A stretch of DNA of 39,978 bases, taken from Candidatus Limnocylindria bacterium. Lineage in GTDB: Bacteria > Chloroflexota > Limnocylindria > P2-11E. The notes beneath the pieces were generated by a model. That model saw nothing but the letters and a program-made list of their open reading frames with translations. It had not been told where the DNA came from and searched no databases. The translations under genes were made by a program, and so were the position numbers. The number at the start of each line of letters is the position of its first letter. Position 1 is the stretch's first letter. Below are positions 445 through 8,791 of the stretch, in pieces. The stretch spans positions 1 to 39,978 of the forward strand of contig JBIOUD010000150.1 in assembly GCA_044866725.1 (NCBI GenBank), given 5' to 3'.

Positions 445-480
445 GGAGCGGGGAGTCTAGTCGGAGCGGGGAGTCTAGTC
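445..480. repeat. Perfect 18-bp tandem duplication (ggagcggggagtctagtc x2)
   Basis: Read directly: 445-462 and 463-480 are identical. The second copy contains the TAG stop (475-477 complement) of the methyltransferase. The first copy abuts the fabD ATG. Confidence 0.95.
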
Positions 481-1950
481 CGGGACGAGGAGCGCTCGGA
501 TCAGGCAGTCGCGGACGAAAGACGTCACGAGGGGACGGACCTCGGAGATCGGCCGTTCCATCGCCGTCGCGAAACGTTCGATCGTCGAAGCGACGGACGA
601 CTCCGCCGCGAGCAAGTCGAAGATCACCGCGCCCGCCTGCGTGAGCTCACGATCGAGCGCGACGCTCGGCGACGCGAAGCGGATCGACCGCACGTCTGCG
701 TCACGCGACGCGCCGGGCGTACGCTCGATATTCATCATCGCCCCCTCGCGTGGACGAACGCGTGCGTTCGCGATCGCGTCATCGCCGGCCTCGGCGATGT
801 CGATCCCCCGGATGAAGGCGCGCGCTTCGTCCCACCGATCGGGAAAACGCGGGACGACGAGCGACATCGTCCAGCCCTCGTACGCGGCGTCCCCCGCTGC
901 GCGCGCGATGACCATCGTGTGCGTGACCTCGTCGATGTGCTCGCGGGCAAGATGCTCGCGGTAGCGCACCGCGCTCTCGCGATAGCGCGCGCCGAAAGTG
1001 GGATCGGCGAGCGCCGCGTAGCCGAGCGCCTGGCGATCGGTGCCGAGGCCGGGCTCGCTGAACACGACGACGTCGGGTCCATCGCCGAGCGCCGTGCGGA
1101 CGCGCTCGTGGACCGCGGCACGCGGACGCACGGGCGAGTCGAACAGCGCGAGCCCGATCCCCCGCGGACGGAGGTGCTCCGGGAGTCCCTCGAGGTAGCG
1201 GAACGCGAGCTCGTCGCCCTTGGTCCCACCGTGCAGGAAGGTGACGCCCGGCTCGTCGCCCGGCCTGGTGACATACGGCGGCTGCGCGACGATCCAATCG
1301 AAGCGCTGCCCGGTGACGGGTGCGAACATGTCGCCACCGCGGATCTCGATCTGGAGCTCGTTGAAGGCCGCGTTGAAGCGCGCCAGCTCGAGCGCGCGCT
1401 CGCTGATGTCCGTCGCGACGACGCGGTCCGCGCCCCTGCGCTTCGCCACGAGCGCGATCGATCCAGGCCCCGTCCCGACATCCAGCACACTTCCGCTGAT
1501 CGGCCGCGGCACCACGGCGAGCAGGTCGCCCGTGGTCGGTCCGGGCGTCATGACGGCCTCGGCTCCCGCCGCGTGGTCGTCGCACCAGATGAAGACGCCG
1601 TCGGCCGTGACCATGCGGAACGCCGACCGCAGCGACCCGTCCTCCTCGCGGAGGATGCCCGCATCGACGAGCCACGAGCGCAGCTGCTTTCCGAGCGCGC
1701 GATCGACGACGTCGGCCGGTACAGCGACCAGATGGAGGAATAGGAGGGCGAGACCGGCGGCGGGATGTGTATCGCGCCGGAGCGCCCACTCCACGAGCGG
1801 GACGCGCAGCTCTTCGGGCATGAACGTGCCGCCCTGCGTCTCGACCGGCAACGGAGTGCGGGTGTCGAACTTCGCGGCGAGGACGCGCCCGCGAAACTCG
1901 GCCGCGCGCTCGCGCGTCATCACGCCGAGACGCGAGAGATCACCGAGCAT
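475..1950 (-). CDS. Class I SAM-dependent methyltransferase (PrmC/HemK-like QPPY motif) with long N- and C-terminal extensions
   Basis: 491-aa ORF. It has the SAM motif VLDVGTGPGSIAL, the acidic loop VVATDIS and IVAQPPY (an NPPY-type motif). The C-terminal ~60 aa resemble a PqqD/RRE-like winged helix (see findings). Confidence 0.75.
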   Translation of the reverse strand: MLGDLSRLGVMTRERAAEFRGRVLAAKFDTRTPLPVETQGGTFMPEELRVPLVEWALRRDTHPAAGLALLFLHLVAVPADVVDRALGKQLRSWLVDAGILREEDGSLRSAFRMVTADGVFIWCDDHAAGAEAVMTPGPTTGDLLAVVPRPISGSVLDVGTGPGSIALVAKRRGADRVVATDISERALELARFNAAFNELQIEIRGGDMFAPVTGQRFDWIVAQPPYVTRPGDEPGVTFLHGGTKGDELAFRYLEGLPEHLRPRGIGLALFDSPVRPRAAVHERVRTALGDGPDVVVFSEPGLGTDRQALGYAALADPTFGARYRESAVRYREHLAREHIDEVTHTMVIARAAGDAAYEGWTMSLVVPRFPDRWDEARAFIRGIDIAEAGDDAIANARVRPREGAMMNIERTPGASRDADVRSIRFASPSVALDRELTQAGAVIFDLLAAESSVASTIERFATAMERPISEVRPLVTSFVRDCLIRALLVPD

Positions 1951-2033
1951 CGAAACTCCTTTGCTCAGTTGGCGACAGGTCGACCATGCGCTACGTTAGC
2001 CGTCGCCGTCGGGGGACGGAGGAGGTGGGATAG

Positions 2034-2783
2034 ATGGACAGCGCACGACCGGATCGTGACGCGCTCGAGATGGAGCTCGCGGAGCTCCGCACAAAGCTGA
2101 AGACGCAGGGGGATGAGCTCGACGCGCTTCGCGCGCAGCTCGCTCCGGCGAGCGGGCCGACGCGCCGCGATCTGCTCCGCGCAGGCGGACTCGTCGGGGC
2201 GGGTCTCGCGGCGCTCACGGTGGCGGGGGTCGCGGGCGCGACGCCGCAGCCTGCGGCTGCCATCGAAGGTCACAACCTTCGGATGAGGGGTGGCCTGTTC
2301 ATCTACCTCACGCTCAAGGGTCAGAAGCAGGGCGACATCAAGGGAAGCGTCACGCAAAAGGGTCGGGAGAACTCGATCCAGGTGCAGTACCTCCAGAGCA
2401 AGATCGTGAGCCCGCGTGATGCCGCGTCCGGCCTGCCGACGGGCAAGCGCCAGCACGAGCCGCTCGTGTGGCGGAAGACCGTCGACAAGAGCACCCCGCT
2501 CCTCCTGAGCGCGCTCGTGAACAACGAGAACATCACCGAGGCCCACTTCAAGTTCTGGAAGCCGTCGCTGACGGGTGCGGAGACCCAGTACTTCACGATC
2601 GATCTCACCAACGCGAGCCTGGCAAGCTCCGACCTGTACCACCCGGACTCCTTCGACTCGACGGCCCCGTCCGCCGGCTCGAGCGACCTCGAGGAATGGT
2701 CGTTCACGTACCAGAAGATCAGATGGACCTTCACCGACGGCGGCATCACTGCCGAGGACGACTGGGAGTCGCCGGTCGTCTAG
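2034..2783 (+). CDS. Hcp/TssD-family (T6SS tube fold) protein with an N-terminal coiled-coil-like segment and a twin-arginine signal
   Basis: A strong SD (ggaggaggtggg, 2018-2029) precedes ATG 2034. The Tat-like signal is TRRDLLRAGGLVGAGLAALTVAGVAGA-T. Residues ~86-249 follow the Hcp pattern (GLPTGKRQHEPLVWRKTVDKSTPLLLSALVNNENITEAHFKFWKP...ETQYFTIDLTNASL...WSFTYQKIRWTFTDGGITAEDDW). The alternative internal start ATG 2283 would give a signal-less 166-aa Hcp. In the 83 upstream codons, 66 end in G/C by my count, which supports the long form. Confidence 0.8.
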   Translation: MDSARPDRDALEMELAELRTKLKTQGDELDALRAQLAPASGPTRRDLLRAGGLVGAGLAALTVAGVAGATPQPAAAIEGHNLRMRGGLFIYLTLKGQKQGDIKGSVTQKGRENSIQVQYLQSKIVSPRDAASGLPTGKRQHEPLVWRKTVDKSTPLLLSALVNNENITEAHFKFWKPSLTGAETQYFTIDLTNASLASSDLYHPDSFDSTAPSAGSSDLEEWSFTYQKIRWTFTDGGITAEDDWESPVV

Positions 2784-2820
2784 CCCGCGCCTTTTCGTGA
2801 CAGTTCGCAATGGGTGGAAG

Positions 2821-5800
2821 GTGAGGGCTCTCGTCCTGAAGATCGGTACGCGCGCGCAACAGAGAGGCATCGCGGCGATCGTCGTCGCGTTCCTCATCGT
2901 CGGCATCGCCGTCGCTCCGGCGGAGTCGGCCGCGGCGACGCGCAACCGCGGGTACTGGATCGCTGGACAGAACGCCCAGGTCTTCGCCTTCGGCGACGGC
3001 TCCGTCCATCCGCAGATCGACCTCCGTCTCGTGCGCGCCCAGATCGTCGACATGGCTGCGCATCCGGATGGGCGAGGCTACTGGCTCCTCGGCCAGGACG
3101 GCGCTGTGTACCCGCACGGCGACGCGCGCGACTTCGGTCAGGGCGGCTTGAGCGATCAGAGCGCGGTCGCGATCGCGTCGACACCGACCGGCGACGGCTA
3201 CTACATCGCGAGCGACAAGGGCGGCGTGAAGGCCTTCGGCGATGCGGTGGACCGCGGTTCGCTGGACAAGAAGGACCTGAGGAAGAGGATCGTCGACATC
3301 GCGGTCACGCCGAGCGGCAACGGCTACTGGCTCGTGGACGAGAGCGGACACATGAATGTCTTTGGCGACGCCGGCCTTTTCGGCTCCCTCGACGGGAAGA
3401 AGATCGTCGCGATGGCCTCGACGCCAAGCGGCAATGGCTACTGGCTCGTCGACGACGGCGGGCAGGTGTGGACCTTCGGTGGCGCGTTCGTGCTGGGCTC
3501 CCTCAACGACCCCGCCAAGAAGGTCGTGGACATCACACCGACGCACACCGGCCGCGGCTACTGGATCGTCGACCGCGACGGTCTCGTGTTCGCATTCGGC
3601 GACGCCGTGCACTACGGCGAGCTCGCGACGGGCGACCTGAAGAATGGGCTCATCGTCGCGATCGTCTCGACGCCGTTCGTGAACCGCGCCCCGGTGGCGA
3701 CCACGGACAGCGTCGCGCTCGACGAGGACATGACGATCGACGTCGACGTGCTTGCGAACGACACCGATGAGGACGGCGATCCGCTCACCGCGACCGTGCT
3801 GACGCAGCCGGCGCACGGGGCCGCGACGCTGAACGGGGACGGCACGATCCGCTACGCGCCGGCGCAGGACTACAACGGCCCCGATTCCTTCACGTACACG
3901 GTCAGCGACCCGTTCGGCGGTAGCGCTGTCGGCACGGTCCACGTCACGGTGCGGCCGGTGAACGACGCGCCCGTTGCGACGGATGACACGTTCTCGACCG
4001 ACGAGGACGCGCCGCTCACGGGGTCGCTCGTCGCGAACGACACCGATGTCGACGGCGACCCGCTCACCGCCGTCCTCGAGACGCTTCCGGCACACGGAGG
4101 CGTCGTGCTCGGCACCGGTGGGGCATTCACTTACACGCCGGGGCCGGACTTCAACGGCGATGACTCATTCAGCTACCGCGCGTCGGACGGACTGCTCACG
4201 TCGAACATCGCGACCGTGCGCATTCACGTGAATCCGGTGAACGACGCACCGGTCGCTCAGCCTGACACCGCGTCGCTCGACGAGGACACCACGCTCACCG
4301 TGACGCCCCCGGGCGTCCTCTCGAACGACAGTGACGTCGATGGGGACGCGCTGCACGCCGTGCTCGCGAGCGGCGCGTCCCACGGCTCGCTCACGCTCGC
4401 GCCGAACGGCGGCTACACGTACACGCCGAACGCGAACTACAACGGCGCCGACGCGTTCACGTACCGCGCGAGCGACGGCGCGCTCGACTCGGGCAACGTG
4501 ACGGTCGCGCTCACGATCCGGCCGGTGAACGACGTGCCCGTCGCGGCGCTCGACACCTACAACGTCACCGAGGACACGGCGCTCGTTGTCGGCGCTCCCG
4601 GCGTCCTTGCGAACGACACCGACGTCGACGGCGACCCGCTGGCCGCCGAGCTCGTGACCGCCCCGACGCACGGCACGCTCACGCTCATGCCCGACGGCAG
4701 CTTCAGCTACGTGCCCGCGGCGAACTTCAACGGGACCGACGTGTTCGTCTACCGCGCGCGGGACGCCGTCTCCGCGTCGGCCGCCACGGCTGCCACGATC
4801 CACGTCGCGGCCGTGAACGACCCACCCGACACGACGGACGACGAGTACCGTGCGCTCGAGGAGACGACGCTCACTGTGGCCGCGCCCGGCGTGCTCGCGA
4901 ACGACAACGACGTCGACAGCCCGACGATGACGGCCACCCTCGGCACCGGTCCGGCGCACGGCGACCTCACGTTCGCGTCGGACGGGTCTTTCGAGTACGT
5001 GCCCGATGCGAACTTCTCCGGCACAGACACATTCACGTACGTCGCGACGGACGGCCTTCGCGCTTCGCGCGAGACCACGGTCGTCATCCTCGTCCAGGGC
5101 GTGAACGATGCTCCTGCGGCGCTGCCCGACGCGTACACGACGGATGAGGACACGTTGCTGCTCGTGGGTGCGCCCGGTGTCATGACGAACGACTCCGACC
5201 CGGACGGCGACACGCTCACCGTCCGACTGGCGGACCGGCCGCTCCACGGTGATGTCGCGCTGCTGCCCGACGGGACGCTCGAGTACATGCCCGACGCGAA
5301 CTTCAACGGCACCGACAGCTTCACGTACGACCTCAGCGATGGCGACGAGACGGTGTTCGGCACGACCGTGACGATCACGGTGACGGCGGTGACGGACCCT
5401 CCGACGGCGAGCGACGACTCATATGCGACGCGGGTCGGCGAGACGCTGTCGGTCGCGGCGCCCGGCGTGCTGGTGAACGACTTCAGCGACGGCGGCGACC
5501 TCACCGCGATCCTGGTGACGGGCCCGGCGCACGGGACGCTGACGCTGAACGGCAGCGGTTCCTTCACGTACACGACGAACCTGGCCGCGGCCGGAAGCGA
5601 CTCGTTCACCTACAAGGTCACCGATGGCGTGGCCGAGTCCGCGCCCGCGACGGTGCACGTCTCAGTGAGCGCGCAGAGTGGCGGTGGTGGCGGTGGCGGC
5701 GGGACGTTCGGCGGGTACGCGCAGCCGACGCTCGTCGTGTGGGACTTCGACAGCTTGAAGCTCGGTGGTGCCGGTGACCTCAAGACGAAGAAGGGCCAGG

Positions 5801-5910
5801 TCAAGAACGGGTACTACCTGCCCAACCGCGGCGAGCGCGGACGCGACTCGTTCGACTACGGCGGCCGCCACTACGAGGTCGACATCATCAGCGACATCTG
5901 GGGCGACTAG
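2821..5910 (+). CDS. Large secreted/surface repeat protein: signal peptide, ~6-blade GYW beta-propeller-like region, 7 tandem ~95-aa cadherin/VCBS-like repeats, Gly8 linker, unknown 68-aa C-terminal domain
   Basis: The ORF-track entry 2575..5910 overlaps the Hcp gene. In-frame GTG 2821 (preceded by gggtggaag) or GTG 2797 lies after the Hcp stop. The N-terminus RGIAAIVVAFLIVGIAVAPAESAAA looks like a signal or anchor. The VNDAPVA...DED..L.V...GVLANDTDVDGDPLTA...P.HG.L.L..DGSF.Y.P...FNG.D.F.Y...D unit repeats seven times. Confidence 0.85.
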   Translation: MRALVLKIGTRAQQRGIAAIVVAFLIVGIAVAPAESAAATRNRGYWIAGQNAQVFAFGDGSVHPQIDLRLVRAQIVDMAAHPDGRGYWLLGQDGAVYPHGDARDFGQGGLSDQSAVAIASTPTGDGYYIASDKGGVKAFGDAVDRGSLDKKDLRKRIVDIAVTPSGNGYWLVDESGHMNVFGDAGLFGSLDGKKIVAMASTPSGNGYWLVDDGGQVWTFGGAFVLGSLNDPAKKVVDITPTHTGRGYWIVDRDGLVFAFGDAVHYGELATGDLKNGLIVAIVSTPFVNRAPVATTDSVALDEDMTIDVDVLANDTDEDGDPLTATVLTQPAHGAATLNGDGTIRYAPAQDYNGPDSFTYTVSDPFGGSAVGTVHVTVRPVNDAPVATDDTFSTDEDAPLTGSLVANDTDVDGDPLTAVLETLPAHGGVVLGTGGAFTYTPGPDFNGDDSFSYRASDGLLTSNIATVRIHVNPVNDAPVAQPDTASLDEDTTLTVTPPGVLSNDSDVDGDALHAVLASGASHGSLTLAPNGGYTYTPNANYNGADAFTYRASDGALDSGNVTVALTIRPVNDVPVAALDTYNVTEDTALVVGAPGVLANDTDVDGDPLAAELVTAPTHGTLTLMPDGSFSYVPAANFNGTDVFVYRARDAVSASAATAATIHVAAVNDPPDTTDDEYRALEETTLTVAAPGVLANDNDVDSPTMTATLGTGPAHGDLTFASDGSFEYVPDANFSGTDTFTYVATDGLRASRETTVVILVQGVNDAPAALPDAYTTDEDTLLLVGAPGVMTNDSDPDGDTLTVRLADRPLHGDVALLPDGTLEYMPDANFNGTDSFTYDLSDGDETVFGTTVTITVTAVTDPPTASDDSYATRVGETLSVAAPGVLVNDFSDGGDLTAILVTGPAHGTLTLNGSGSFTYTTNLAAAGSDSFTYKVTDGVAESAPATVHVSVSAQSGGGGGGGGTFGGYAQPTLVVWDFDSLKLGGAGDLKTKKGQVKNGYYLPNRGERGRDSFDYGGRHYEVDIISDIWGD
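2941..3678 (+). repeat. Six protein-level ~41-45-aa repeats (G-x-GYW-[LI]-x-x-x-x-G-x-V-x-x-FGDA), beta-propeller-like
   Basis: The six repeats read RGYWIAGQNAQVFAFGDG, GRGYWLLGQDGAVYPHGDA, GDGYYIASDKGGVKAFGDA, GNGYWLVDESGHMNVFGDA, GNGYWLVDDGGQVWTFGGA and GRGYWIVDRDGLVFAFGDA. Confidence 0.75.
3679..5670 (+). repeat. Seven diverged in-frame coding tandem repeats of 279-288 bp (tandem-95 / cadherin-like Ig repeats)
   Basis: Repeat-initial GTG-AAC (VN[DR]AP, last one VTDPP) occurs at 3679, 3958, 4237, 4525, 4813, 5101 and 5389. The spacings are 279, 279, 288, 288, 288 and 288 bp. Confidence 0.9.
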
Positions 5911-5919
5911 CCCGGCACT

Positions 5920-5946
5920 GTGACGATCGCGTAACAAGCGCGTCAC
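5920..5946 (+). terminator. Candidate stem-loop after the giant gene
   Basis: The structure is gtgacg-at-cgc / gtaacaa / gcg-cgtcac, a 9-bp stem with a 2-nt bulge, 10 nt after TAG 5908-5910. No U-tract follows, so it is not a classical intrinsic terminator. Confidence 0.3.
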
Positions 5947-5986
5947 GAGGGCGCGACGCGGAACGACTTCTGCGCGACCGGCCGGC

Positions 5987-6253
5987 GTGAAGACGCAGTA
6001 CCTCTACGGACGTCCTTGGCCGGAGGCGATCGCCGGCGCCGTCTGCGGGTTCCAGATCGGCCTTGCGCTCGCGGTCGTACCGCAGCTCACGCGCCTCATC
6101 GAAGACCCCGTCACCGCACCGATCATCCTCGCGATGACCGCCGCCGCGGGTGCGGTCGCGTCGTGGTGGATCGCCGGACGGTCGATGGGCGTCGCGCGCA
6201 CGAAGCTCGAACGGCCGATGGCCCTCGACCGAGAGCGGCGCCGGGCGGCCTAG
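5987..6253 (+). CDS. Hypothetical small membrane protein (two predicted TM helices)
   Basis: 88-aa ORF with a GTG start. The hydrophobic segments are AIAGAVCGFQIGLALAVV and PIILAMTAAAGAVASWWIAG. I recognise no family. Confidence 0.45.
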   Translation: MKTQYLYGRPWPEAIAGAVCGFQIGLALAVVPQLTRLIEDPVTAPIILAMTAAAGAVASWWIAGRSMGVARTKLERPMALDRERRRAA

Positions 6254-6531
6254 CCTCGTCCACGCGGCGTCACGATGACGTCGCGGAACTCGGGGAAGTA
6301 GCGCTCGATCGTCGAGAGGCTGAACTCGCGCAGGATGCTGGTGTTCTCCTCGCGCGCGAGCAGGAACTCGATGGAGCGGCGCACGAGATCGCCCACGTCA
6401 CCGCCACCGAAGCGCTCGTGCTCGGCGCGCGTCACACGGACGCGATGCGAGGTCGTGCTCGCGGCGACGATGCGCACGTCGGCGATCCAGCCCTCGGTCT
6501 CTTTCCGGACCGTCAGTGTGACGGCCGCCAT
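6250..6531 (-). CDS. Hypothetical 93-aa protein translationally coupled to the BCCP-like gene
   Basis: ATG 6531-6529 overlaps the upstream TGA (6533-6531) as ATGA. The composition is balanced and not Arg/Pro-rich (MAAVTLTVRKETEGWIADVRIV...IEFLLAREENTSILREF). No family recognised. Confidence 0.6.
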   Translation of the reverse strand: MAAVTLTVRKETEGWIADVRIVAASTTSHRVRVTRAEHERFGGGDVGDLVRRSIEFLLAREENTSILREFSLSTIERYFPEFRDVIVTPRGRG

Positions 6532-6965
6532 CAGCGCAGCGCGATGACGAAGAGCGCCTGACCGTATTCGACCGGTGCGCCGGTGGTCACGAGGACCTCG
6601 CGGATCTCCCCGTCGGCCGGCGCCTTGACCTCAGAGATGTGTCCGAGCGTCTGGATGCCGCCGAGCACCTCGCCGCGCGTCACCGCGTCGCCCGGGCTCC
6701 ACGCGCGCGGCCCGTTGAAGATGCCGACAGTGCCGGCGTGCACGCGCTGGGTCTTTGGCGCTGACGCCTCCGCTTCAGCGGACGGCGTCCGCCGCGGAGA
6801 CACCGCCACGGCGGCTTCCCCGCCCTGCGGCGTGCGCACGACACCGCTGCGGCGCGACACCGTCACGGCGAACCCATCCGCCTGGACCTCGATGGTCGAC
6901 GCGGGCGAATCCGAGAGCAGCTTCATGAGGTCGTCGAGCAGCCCGAGGACGTGGTCGTCGCTCAC
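6531..6965 (-). CDS. Biotin-carboxyl-carrier-protein-like protein (biotinyl/lipoyl fold) lacking the biotinylated lysine
   Basis: The C-terminal AGTVGIFNGPRAWSPGDAVTRGEVLGGIQTLGHISEVKAPADGEIREVLVTTGAPVEYGQALFVI aligns without gaps to the AccB hairpin, with TLGH in place of AMKM. I chose GTG 6965 as the start because it forms a GTGA overlap with the accA stop. The track start 7001 would overlap accA by 40 nt. Confidence 0.75.
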   Translation of the reverse strand: MSDDHVLGLLDDLMKLLSDSPASTIEVQADGFAVTVSRRSGVVRTPQGGEAAVAVSPRRTPSAEAEASAPKTQRVHAGTVGIFNGPRAWSPGDAVTRGEVLGGIQTLGHISEVKAPADGEIREVLVTTGAPVEYGQALFVIALR

Positions 6966-7939
6966 CGGTCCAAGCCTGCCATGCGGCGCAGTCTGCGCCA
7001 CCAGGGGACCGGTGGCGGCGGCGCGACCGGCCCGCCGAGCTCGGTCAGGGTGCCGAAGCCGCGGAAGCGCTCGTACCTGGCGGAGAGGAGCTCGGTGACC
7101 GAGACGCGCTCGAACTTCGCAAGCTGCGCGACGAGCGCGGTCTTGATGGCCGACGCGGTCGCGTCGTGGTCGGTATGCGCGCCGCCGGCCGGCTCGGGGA
7201 TGAGCGCGTCGACGACACCGAGATCGAGGAGGTCGGGTCCGGCGAGACGCGCGGCCTTCGCGGCGCGCTCGGCTTCGGCCGGACTGCGCCCGAGGATCGA
7301 GGCGGACCCTTCAGGCGAGATCACCGAGTAGATCGCGTTCTGCATCGCGAGCACGACGTCGCCGATCGCGAGCGCGAGCGCGCCGCCCGATCCGCCTTCT
7401 CCGAGGATCACGACGACGATCGGCGTGCGTAGGCGAGTCATCGTGAAGATCGCCTTCGCGATCGCCTGGGCCTGCCCGCGTTCCTCGCCCTCGGGTCCGG
7501 GATACGCCCCAGGCGTGTCCACGAGCGTGATGAGTGGCAGGTGGAACTTCTCGGCGAGCTTGTACAGGCGGATCGCCTTGCGGTAGCCCTCGGGGTGCGG
7601 CATCCCGAAGTTGCGGTGGATGTTCTCCTCGGTCGATGCGCCCTTCTGCTCGCCCACGACGACGACCGGCCGTCCATCCAGCTCGGCGATCCCGCCCACG
7701 ATCGCCGGGTCGTCGCGGAAGCCGCGGTCGCCATGGATCTCCTGGAACCGGTCGAACACGCGAGTGATGACATCCAGCGCGTGCGGCCGCTTGATGTTCC
7801 GCGCCGCCTGCACCGCGTCCCACGCCGACGCGCGCGACGCGAGCTGCTGCGACGAGGTGATGAGGTTCGCGTCCTCGGGGATGTGCCCGTTCGAACCCGG
7901 AGTCGCGCGCGCGCCGACGATGCGGTCGAGCATGCCCAA
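6962..7939 (-). CDS. accA: Acetyl-CoA carboxylase carboxyltransferase alpha subunit
   Basis: Motifs seen: GMPHPEGYRKA, LITLVDTPGAYPG and ILGEGGSGGALA. The start is TTG 7939 (adjacent to the accD stop) or ATG 7933. Confidence 0.9.
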   Translation of the reverse strand: MGMLDRIVGARATPGSNGHIPEDANLITSSQQLASRASAWDAVQAARNIKRPHALDVITRVFDRFQEIHGDRGFRDDPAIVGGIAELDGRPVVVVGEQKGASTEENIHRNFGMPHPEGYRKAIRLYKLAEKFHLPLITLVDTPGAYPGPEGEERGQAQAIAKAIFTMTRLRTPIVVVILGEGGSGGALALAIGDVVLAMQNAIYSVISPEGSASILGRSPAEAERAAKAARLAGPDLLDLGVVDALIPEPAGGAHTDHDATASAIKTALVAQLAKFERVSVTELLSARYERFRGFGTLTELGGPVAPPPPVPWWRRLRRMAGLDR

Positions 7940-8791
7940 CTAGAGGCTCCAGCGCATGTCTTGCGACGCGGCGCGGAATGCGGTGAGGAAGAACGCGACG
8001 CGGTCGCGCAGCTGCGTGCGCGGCACGATCTGGTCGAGGAAGCCCTTCTCGAGCAGGAATTCGCTCTTCCCGAATCCCACCGGCAGCTTCTCGCCGACGG
8101 TGCCGCTGGTCACGCGCTCGCCCGAGAAGCGGATGAGCGCGCCAGGCTCCGCGAGGTTCAGGTCACCGAGCGACGCGTACGACGCGAGGACGCCTCCGGT
8201 CGTGGGGTCGGTGATGATGCTGACGTACGGGAGGCCGGCGTCGTCGAGGCGCGCGAGCGCCGAGACGATCTTCCCCATCTGCATGAGCGCAAGCGTGCCT
8301 TCCTGCATACGCGCGCCGCCCGACGCGGAGACGACCACGAGCGCACGTCGCTCGGCGAGCGCGCGCTCCGCGGCGCGGGTGATCTTCTCGCCGACGACGC
8401 TGCCCATCGAGCCGCCCATGAACTCGAAGTCCATGACCACGAGCTCTACCGGATTGCCGCCGATCGTGGCGCTCCCGGCGATGGCCGCGTCCTTCTCGCC
8501 GCTCTTCGCCTGCGCCGCGGCGATGCGCTCGGGGTACGGCTTGCTGTCGACGAAACCGAGCGGATCACCTGAGGAGAGCGCGCCGTCCTGCTCGCTGAAC
8601 GAGCCCTTATCGACGAGCAGCTCGATGCGCTCGCGCGCGCCCATCCGGAAGTGGTGCCCGCACTTCGAACAGACGCTCTGGTTCCGCACGAGCTGCTTGT
8701 TGAACAGCATCTCGTCGCAGGACGGGCACTTCGTCCAGAGGTGATCCGGGAATTCCTTCGGCTTGCGGCCGAAGGGCATGCGGAGCCTCAT
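7940..8791 (-). CDS. accD: Acetyl-CoA carboxylase carboxyltransferase beta subunit
   Basis: It has the N-terminal zinc ribbon CPSCDEMLF...CSKCGHH, then MGGSMGSVVGEK and SGGARMQEG. The start forms an ATGA overlap with the degV-like stop. An alternative ATG is at 8779. Confidence 0.9.
   Translation of the reverse strand: MRLRMPFGRKPKEFPDHLWTKCPSCDEMLFNKQLVRNQSVCSKCGHHFRMGARERIELLVDKGSFSEQDGALSSGDPLGFVDSKPYPERIAAAQAKSGEKDAAIAGSATIGGNPVELVVMDFEFMGGSMGSVVGEKITRAAERALAERRALVVVSASGGARMQEGTLALMQMGKIVSALARLDDAGLPYVSIITDPTTGGVLASYASLGDLNLAEPGALIRFSGERVTSGTVGEKLPVGFGKSEFLLEKGFLDQIVPRTQLRDRVAFFLTAFRAASQDMRWSL

Follow-up and report, generated by a model that had tools for sequence, protein, structure and literature searches.

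Positions 1 to 39,978 of contig JBIOUD010000150.1 from Candidatus Limnocylindria bacterium (assembly GCA_044866725.1; this whole stretch of 39,978 nucleotides is called the window below) contain on the forward strand a 249-amino-acid open reading frame (ORF; 2034-2783, ATG to TAG) in which a conserved N-terminal leader precedes an Hcp/TssD domain. The reading that we favour, at somewhat better than even chances, is that a Limnocylindria-like lineage uses this Hcp/TssD-family barrel outside any type VI secretion system (T6SS), and that the protein is exported by the twin-arginine translocation (Tat) pathway, cleaved, assembled into a ring at the cell surface and partnered there with an adhesin. 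The gene encodes a bona fide Hcp with a selectively constrained, translated leader of defined motif anatomy, it lies in a three-gene module with no T6SS genes nearby, and its host is a soil bacterium of the Chloroflexota. Tat dependence, cleavage, ring formation and a functional link to the adhesin and to a neighbouring methyltransferase are what these features, taken together, point to. An exported Hcp is apparently undescribed, and its function can only be inferred; a literature search found no paper describing signal-peptide-bearing Hcps, or an Hcp in Chloroflexota or monoderms.

The C-terminal two thirds of the protein are a true Hcp/TssD domain, a beta-barrel at residues 90-246 (2301..2771, + strand). 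Pfam T6SS_HCP (PF05638) matches residues 91-233 over the full length of the model (E = 9.7e-30, 103.9 bits vs. a cutoff of 23.5), and NCBIfam TIGR03344 (TssD) matches residues 90-246 (E = 1.1e-39, 136.1 bits vs. a cutoff of 58.9). With both profiles far above their curated cutoffs, the Hcp/TssD identity that an initial annotation had proposed from the letters of the DNA is borne out. That annotation had also suggested modelling the monomer, and the AlphaFold2 prediction, made from an alignment of 86 sequences, has the Hcp fold, with a predicted local distance difference test score (pLDDT) above 90 across residues 90-246. Its best match in a Foldseek search of the PDB was Hcp1 of enteroaggregative Escherichia coli (4hkh; E = 1e-17, template modelling score (TM) 0.91), the further top matches included 6a2v, 5mxn (Vibrio cholerae), 3he1 and 5urw (Myxococcus xanthus), with Hcp3 and Hcp1 of Pseudomonas aeruginosa also represented, and the top 25 were Hcp structures throughout, with TM scores up to 0.91-0.93.

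Canonical Hcp/TssD proteins such as 4HKH, 5MXN and 5URW thus share with the window protein their profile (136 bits) and their fold (TM 0.91), and the nearest of them in sequence (P0072, L009 and L014) are about 60% identical over the whole barrel. The two groups agree at almost every conserved position, including the SPRDxxSGLPTGKRQH loop, and consistent differences are very few: the group-specific Y119, R147 and D205 and one loop (199-220), which is usually 2-8 residues longer in leader-bearing Hcps. Judging from the 60% identity to tube-forming Hcps and the small number of group-specific changes, the mature protein probably forms hexameric rings. Canonical Hcps, however, are proteins of about 162 residues without a signal peptide that are expelled by the sheath and encoded beside tssB, tssC and the T6SS core, whereas the window protein belongs to a group with a conserved leader of 76-89 residues, has no T6SS neighbours and comes from a phylum described as monoderm. 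Known variants of the family are the "evolved" Hcps (Hcp-ET), which carry a C-terminal toxin extension and still leave through the T6SS. Both are Hcp barrels with an extra module that alters function, but here the extension is N-terminal, an export leader that replaces the T6SS route. Sequence and fold thus both place the leader-bearing Hcp in the Hcp family, but it fails the system-level features of a T6SS part.

The start of translation bears directly on whether the leader is real. A strong Shine-Dalgarno sequence, GGAGGAGGTGGG (2018..2029, + strand), ends 4 nt 5' of ATG 2034, where the initial annotation had noted a strong one, and direct reading of the sequence finds no comparable purine run or Shine-Dalgarno sequence ahead of the internal ATG at 2283. 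A recount gave exactly the 66 codons ending in G or C that had been reported for codons 1-83; the G+C content of the window is 69.5%, and the long opposite-strand ORFs that overlap the Hcp gene are the usual shadows of a high-GC gene. Among 5.8 billion proteins searched, some 67 clusters with members of 245-272 residues matched the entire query (100% coverage of the full leader-bearing ORF, 2034..2783, + strand, 249 residues and stop) down to 47% identity. Ordinary Hcps of 162 residues ranked after these leader-bearing clusters, at about 60% identity and over the barrel only. The extension aligns in 65 full-length homologues (47-97% identity), with M1 aligned in 63 of them, while M84, the residue encoded by ATG 2283, is retained in only five. 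Against three homologous loci, the ratio of nonsynonymous to synonymous substitution rates (dN/dS; Nei-Gojobori) for codons 1-83 is 0.10, 0.19 and 0.28, lower than the 0.27, 0.37 and 0.72 of the Hcp domain at the same loci. This conservation and these substitution ratios show that the 83-codon extension is translated and under purifying selection, in line with the initial annotation, which had held it to be coding. That annotation had also named an outcome that would undo its proposal, a start at ATG 2283. We reject this start because M84 is rarely kept, no Shine-Dalgarno sequence precedes it and the leader dN/dS is low.

No T6SS genes were found around this gene. Pfam families of T6SS, contractile-injection and phage-tail proteins are absent from the sizeable ORFs of the 40-kb window, and tblastn with TssB, TssC, TssE, TssF, TssG and ClpV gave no match in the window, so that the earlier statement that no TssB/C, VgrG, baseplate, TssM, ClpV or phage-tail genes occur in these 40 kb stands. 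The same tblastn queries matched none of 21 leader-bearing Hcp loci (189 kb in total), compared with 6/6 canonical Hcp loci used as controls and 38/70 of the other Hcp loci of at least 12 kb; sheath, baseplate, spike and tape-measure families were found neither in the window nor beside relatives. The closest leaderless Hcps (P0072; a Planctomycetota-labelled metagenome-assembled genome, MAG; an uncultured bacterium) adjoin tssB and tssC, with tssE, tssF, tssG and clpV within the same cluster. The host of the window is a member of Limnocylindria, a class of Chloroflexota. The AccA of the window has its own contig as best match, and among its named relatives at 78-83% identity, MAGs labelled Candidatus Limnocylindria, Limnocylindrales or Chloroflexota predominate. 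Rfam and tRNA scans of the window gave nothing of taxonomic use. The Chloroflexota envelope has been described as monoderm (PMC12488501), and monoderm genomes were without diderm-type secretion systems in a systematic survey (PMC4793230).

These data also bear on the plainest alternative, an ordinary orphan hcp that starts at ATG 2283 and yields a signal-less, 166-residue Hcp serving a T6SS or contractile injection system encoded elsewhere. The domain is indeed a full-score TssD, annotation pipelines label its relatives as TssD, and T6SS-positive genomes often contain orphan hcp genes (PMC4793230). Set against this are the rarity of M84 (5/65), the missing Shine-Dalgarno sequence, the dN/dS of 0.10-0.28 for codons that align across 65 homologues, the complete lack of T6SS genes in 21 loci, and a phylum described as monoderm, such systems having been absent from the monoderm genomes surveyed. 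We regard the orphan-hcp explanation as largely refuted and give it next to no weight.

The leader itself has an ordered anatomy. Residues 7-36 (2052..2141, + strand) are predicted by AlphaFold2 as a single helix (pLDDT ~85) with a regular 3.5-heptad pattern whose a/d positions are L11, L15, L18, L22, Q25, L29, L32 and L36. Positions 11, 15, 18, 22, 29, 32 and 36 are hydrophobic in 60-65 of the 65 homologues, Gln25 is invariant among them and in core register, and the dN/dS of this coiled-coil region is 0.17-0.35; the heptad-like stretch of the initial annotation is thus well conserved. It is followed by the twin-arginine motif T43-R-R-D-L-L-R49 (2160..2180, + strand), which conforms to the family consensus [ST]RRx[LVMF][LF][RK] and to the TatP regular expression RR.[FGAVML][LITMVF], each found in 65/65. 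The two arginines are residues 44-45 of the window protein; across the family their position ranges over 37-62. Next comes a Gly/Ala-rich h-region at residues 50-69 (2181..2240, + strand); across the family the uncharged run after the arginines is 18-28 residues long and Gly/Ala-rich, with a mean Kyte-Doolittle hydropathy of 1.2-1.8, and its AlphaFold2 pLDDT is low, as expected of a signal peptide. The succession of TRRDLLR and a hydrophobic segment, which the initial annotation had recognised, is therefore a conserved property of the 65 homologues.

The c-region, TPQPAAA (2241..2261, + strand), places an A-x-A at residues 74-76 directly before [IV]EG[HQN]N in 64/65, and the dN/dS of residues 42-76 is 0.03 relative to locus L002. 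Conservation therefore suggests that signal peptidase would most likely cut after A76 (A74-x-A76/I77), giving a predicted mature protein of residues 77-249 (2262-2780, + strand). The cleavage-like AGA-T site favoured earlier (A67-G-A69/T70) is, unlike A74-x-A76, not conserved, and we prefer AAA|I. The residues E78-G79-x-N81 are invariant directly after the A-x-A; this segment (residues 77-89, 2262-2300) has no counterpart in canonical Hcps and would form the N-terminus of the mature protein. More distant relatives, 37-45% identical to the window protein, also have a charged helical segment, an invariant pair of arginines, a Gly/Ala-rich segment and an AxA-like motif.

The Hcp leader resembles known Tat signal peptides, among them the signals of reductive dehalogenases in Chloroflexota and the Rieske-type anchors that stay uncleaved, in its S/T-R-R-x-F-L-K-like motif, its weakly hydrophobic, Gly/Ala-rich h-region and its A-x-A. 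It departs from them in having an n-region of about 42 residues with a conserved heptad coiled coil, an RR at residue 44 and a sub-cutoff Pfam Tat score; in addition, no cofactor-binding reason for the use of Tat is apparent in the leader-bearing Hcp. Tat dependence is consequently a strong inference from motifs.

The genomic neighbourhood supplies the second line of evidence. On the opposite strand, upstream and divergent, lies a gene for a HemK/PrmC/MTQ2-like N-methyltransferase (475..1950, - strand) with an MTS domain (Pfam MTS, E = 2e-14; PrmA), a weak DUF7059 match and a QPPY motif. The NCBIfam HemK/PrmC families all score below their curated cutoffs on it; its PDB relatives are GenN (5u4t) and HemK (2b3t), and it resembles both N5-glutamine protein methyltransferases and the aminoglycoside N-methyltransferase GenN. 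Downstream, starting 38 nt after the Hcp stop codon, a gene for a 1029-residue propeller/tandem-95 adhesin follows on the same strand (2821..5910, + strand; Pfam and NCBIfam matches), and a promoter/terminator scan of 1700-6300 gave no match of either kind, so that no terminator-like site separates the two. The adhesin begins with a signal or anchor segment; after it come some seven beta-propeller-like blades of the 'GYW...FGDA' type, seven tandem-95/Big_9/cadherin-like repeats (Pfam Big_9 and Cadherin_4/5, seven times), a linker of eight glycines and a degenerate repeat; NCBIfam NF012211 (tandem-95) matches with E = 5e-150 and the protein is BapA/LapF-like. For the N-terminal region, a single-sequence AlphaFold2 model (pLDDT 53.5) resembles seven-bladed propellers and supports the description as beta-propeller-like only.

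In every flanked locus of the clade at 47% identity or above, the order divergent methyltransferase, Hcp, adhesin is kept: 14 loci in 12 different contexts (the window, L002-L004, L005, L008, L089-L095 and L174), with a downstream partner of 635-1098 residues that begins, in the loci read, 23-100 nt from the Hcp gene. The genes outside the trio vary, for instance FabD with acetyl-CoA carboxylase (ACC) genes, PNPOx with DUF1015, a hydrolase with HMGL, or DUF892, Ice_binding and Glyoxalase. As the trio is constant while its outer flanks differ, it behaves as a unit. A database survey of Hcps with twin-arginine signals and their neighbours, which the initial annotation had recommended, yielded 65 such homologues, methyltransferase and adhesin genes as neighbours in the 14 flanked loci, and leaderless kin in T6SS clusters. 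The initial annotation had described neither this module nor the large class of signal-bearing Hcps. Bap/Lap-type adhesins (BapA/LapF/tandem-95) are the nearest known parallel, because the neighbour protein is likewise tandem-95/Big_9/cadherin-like and these adhesins are kept beside small accessory genes. In diderms, Bap/Lap adhesins use a type I secretion system and LapG/LapD-type accessories, and none is known to have an Hcp-fold protein or a HemK-like methyltransferase as its partner.

Other features of the module concern its two outer genes and their spacing. The eight-glycine run of the adhesin (5680-5703) is a linker before a degenerate-looking last repeat, and linker and C-terminal segment recur in the partners of L002, L005, L092 and L093. 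We considered the C-terminal 70 residues as a special Hcp-binding domain and rejected this, as they look like a degenerate last tandem-95 repeat. Between methyltransferase and Hcp gene, three loci have a 43-residue ORF (L002 9795-9926, L003 3010-3141, L004 673-804); the corresponding intergenic region of the window is 83 nt long and has no room for it.

Taken together, these observations suggest the following course of events. The 249-residue precursor, with its 76-residue leader made up of a zipper-like coil (7-36), TRRDLLR (43-49), an h-region (50-69) and PQP-AAA (70-76), would fold in the cytoplasm, where the zipper may hold an oligomer; it may also bring a number of precursors together so that they are transported jointly, or serve to dock a factor of the cytoplasm. 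The HemK-like N-methyltransferase may modify the Hcp or the adhesin before export. The Tat translocase would then carry the precursor over the single cytoplasmic membrane, and signal peptidase would cleave after A76, leaving a mature Hcp of about 173 residues with the N-terminus IEGHN... at the cell surface. There it would, in this clade, probably serve the co-transcribed adhesin as a scaffold or collar of ring shape, or as a chaperone outside the cytoplasm.

A number of observations weigh against this scheme. The first set concerns Tat: with 13.7 bits, Pfam TAT_signal (PF10518) falls short of its 22.7-bit cutoff; the highest-scoring Tat-related match in NCBIfam, TIGR02811, stays at 11.9 bits (E = 0.21) with a cutoff of 48.45, and no general Tat-signal model matched at E ≤ 1 in that library. 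The RR at residue 44 comes later than in typical Tat signals, and the protein fails the TATFIND rule, which expects RR within the first 35 residues. Neither tatA nor tatC was found in the 40-kb window. The "textbook" Tat signal of the initial annotation is therefore textbook in its motif, h-region and A-x-A, but not in its profile score or in the position of its arginines. Moreover, Hcp hexamers measure some 85-90 Å across, which probably puts them at or beyond the limit commonly given for cargo of the Tat system. It is thus doubtful that a ring is exported ready-made; the protein may instead pass as a monomer. Export of monomers or small oligomers is as possible as that of assembled rings. 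The second set concerns the adhesin and the host. The leader-bearing relatives P0273 and P0382 (39% identity) stand alone, with no adhesin, methyltransferase or T6SS genes, which makes the link to the adhesin a feature of this clade rather than of exported Hcps in general. Shared descent alone can also preserve synteny in related organisms. Finally, the host assignment relies on MAG labels, and one AccA match is labelled Candidatus Acidoferrales and one Hcp relative (P0067) Mycobacteriales.

The sub-cutoff Tat score also speaks for another route, in which the protein passes unfolded through SecYEG, or inserts spontaneously, and the two arginines simply contribute to the positive charge of the n-region. 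HMMER, run exhaustively against 1.84 billion cluster representatives, returned 3553 relatives, and the best 150 of these were classed by a simple, rough classifier (Hcp-domain start, hydrophobic window and RR regular expression). By this measure 87 of the 150 nearest cluster representatives have signal-like N-termini: 72 bear a Sec-like or transmembrane extension, often with an A-x-A directly before 'ALNAYM...', and 15 are Tat-like, while 44 are canonical, 11 are giant or multidomain proteins and eight have an extension without a hydrophobic segment. The 72 Sec-like signals are free of RR and sit directly before the Hcp barrel, and the Hcp fold is therefore evidently exportable without Tat. 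In the window protein and its kin, on the other hand, RR is invariant and the full consensus is present in 65/65 as well as in relatives at 37-45% identity, which exceeds the need of a generic positive n-region, and the h-region is weakly hydrophobic, like those of Tat signals. Sec export of this particular clade thus appears improbable to us.

A stronger competitor keeps the twin arginines and dispenses with cleavage. The Gly/Ala-rich segment (about 23 residues, L47-A69) could be an N-in signal anchor, with the coiled coil bundling cytoplasmic tails and the Hcp ring kept attached to the outside of the membrane, where it would form a surface platform or a conduit-like assembly. The uncharged run of 18-28 residues is long enough for a bilayer, and uncleaved Tat-dependent N-terminal anchors exist, for example in Rieske proteins. 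A strictly conserved n-region coiled coil with an invariant core Gln would be odd in a disposable signal and natural in a permanent oligomerisation domain, and purifying selection acts more strongly on the leader, over its full length, than on the Hcp domain. However, an A-x-A preceded by prolines is kept in 64/65, and AxA-like motifs also come after the h-region of distant relatives; the segment, moreover, with its weak hydrophobicity (1.2-1.8) and its Gly/Ala-rich composition, has the character of a Tat h-region, not that of a stable anchor. We therefore consider a permanent anchor unlikely, although it deserves more attention than Sec export, and retain Tat export with cleavage as the preferred reading.

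A different function for the exported protein would be that of an anti-T6SS decoy, a ring located in the cell wall that captures injected Hcp-dependent effectors of attackers. The basis for this idea is that the ring is 60% identical to Hcps of soil Myxococcota, Fibrobacterota, Bacteroidota and Acidobacteriota. The leaderless Hcps most closely related to it belong to the T6SS of Polyangiaceae, Fibrobacterota and Bacteroidota, and since group-specific positions are few (Y119, R147, D205 and one loop), the lumen may still bind cargo; the distant exported Hcps also stand alone, as a defence gene might. Nevertheless, the module with adhesin and methyltransferase would go unexplained, no defence island was seen next to the gene (no search of the PADLOC library was made), and monoderms are seldom the target of a T6SS. 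A decoy is accordingly very unlikely in our estimate. Ordered by estimated likelihood, the rivals to the adhesin-associated exported ring are the membrane anchor, Sec export, the decoy and, last, the orphan hcp.

The wider family offers further forms of signal-bearing Hcps. Sec-type signals of 20-35 residues are seen in P0251, P0274, P0277, P0282, P0287, P0292, P0295, P0298, P0311, P0325, P0411, P0452 and others. In P0246, P0261, P0263, P0313, P0406 and locus L175, the Hcp domain stands behind a signal or transmembrane segment and collagen-like GPxG repeats, with a Pfam Collagen match in P0406; the gene of P0246 stands by itself on its contig. No T6SS genes lie within 8 kb of the Sec-type P0452 or the collagen-linker P0246. 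The giant proteins P0241-P0244 (3305-5355 residues), together with P0272 and P0281, repeat the Hcp loop motif 'SPRDAASGLPTGKR.HKP', most of them with a signal-like N-terminus; counted by SPRD, P0241 has up to 19 copies and the other giants have 3-14 each, and the repeats appear outside any Hcp barrel. This suggests that the Hcp loop may be a self-standing functional module. Signal-bearing forms are intermingled with canonical ones in a neighbour-joining tree of the Hcp domains, a pattern from which we take no view on a single origin of the leader-bearing forms.

A scan of 185,579 GTDB species genomes for the leader pattern found no leader-bearing member, and a second scan of the same genomes found only canonical Hcps at 60% identity or less. 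Two candidates for long matches, L009 and L014, were discarded as tblastn run-on into non-coding DNA 5' of ordinary 162-residue Hcps in T6SS clusters. With about 67 metagenome clusters but none in GTDB species representatives, the carriers seem poorly represented there. The other sizeable ORFs of the window are of the housekeeping and transport type (ACC subunits, biotin protein ligase, DegV, SurE, ABC transporters, PGM, a histidine kinase and others). Directly downstream of the three-gene module are the genes for BCCP, AccA and AccD with biotin ligase and DegV (6531-8791, - strand), the BCCP and AccA ORFs overlapping by 40 nt as listed.

Hcp is the textbook example of a signal-less protein, its presence in culture supernatants is the standard assay of T6SS activity, and the hcp gene commonly serves to mark the presence of a T6SS in genomic and metagenomic data. 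The combination of a selected leader, 60% identity to canonical Hcps, a phylum described as monoderm and the absence of nearby T6SS genes indicates that the Hcp fold has also been put to work apart from the injection machinery. Some 'TssD' annotations consequently do not signal a T6SS, a result that bears on annotation and will surprise T6SS specialists. The coiled coil ahead of the twin-arginine motif is an unusual, testable case for learning how Tat deals with oligomeric cargo, and an extracytoplasmic Hcp ring is a candidate adhesin scaffold, chaperone or effector decoy. A bolder reading, to which we give a low probability, is that exported Hcp rings are a widespread T6SS-independent class, overlooked since pipelines call them 'TssD', in which the zipper gathers precursors for export of rings by Tat and the ring serves as an adhesin hub or chaperone; a still bolder variant would make such rings decoys for incoming T6SS effectors. 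If the former were true, these bacteria would possess a new cell-surface organelle made from a part of a phage tail or T6SS.

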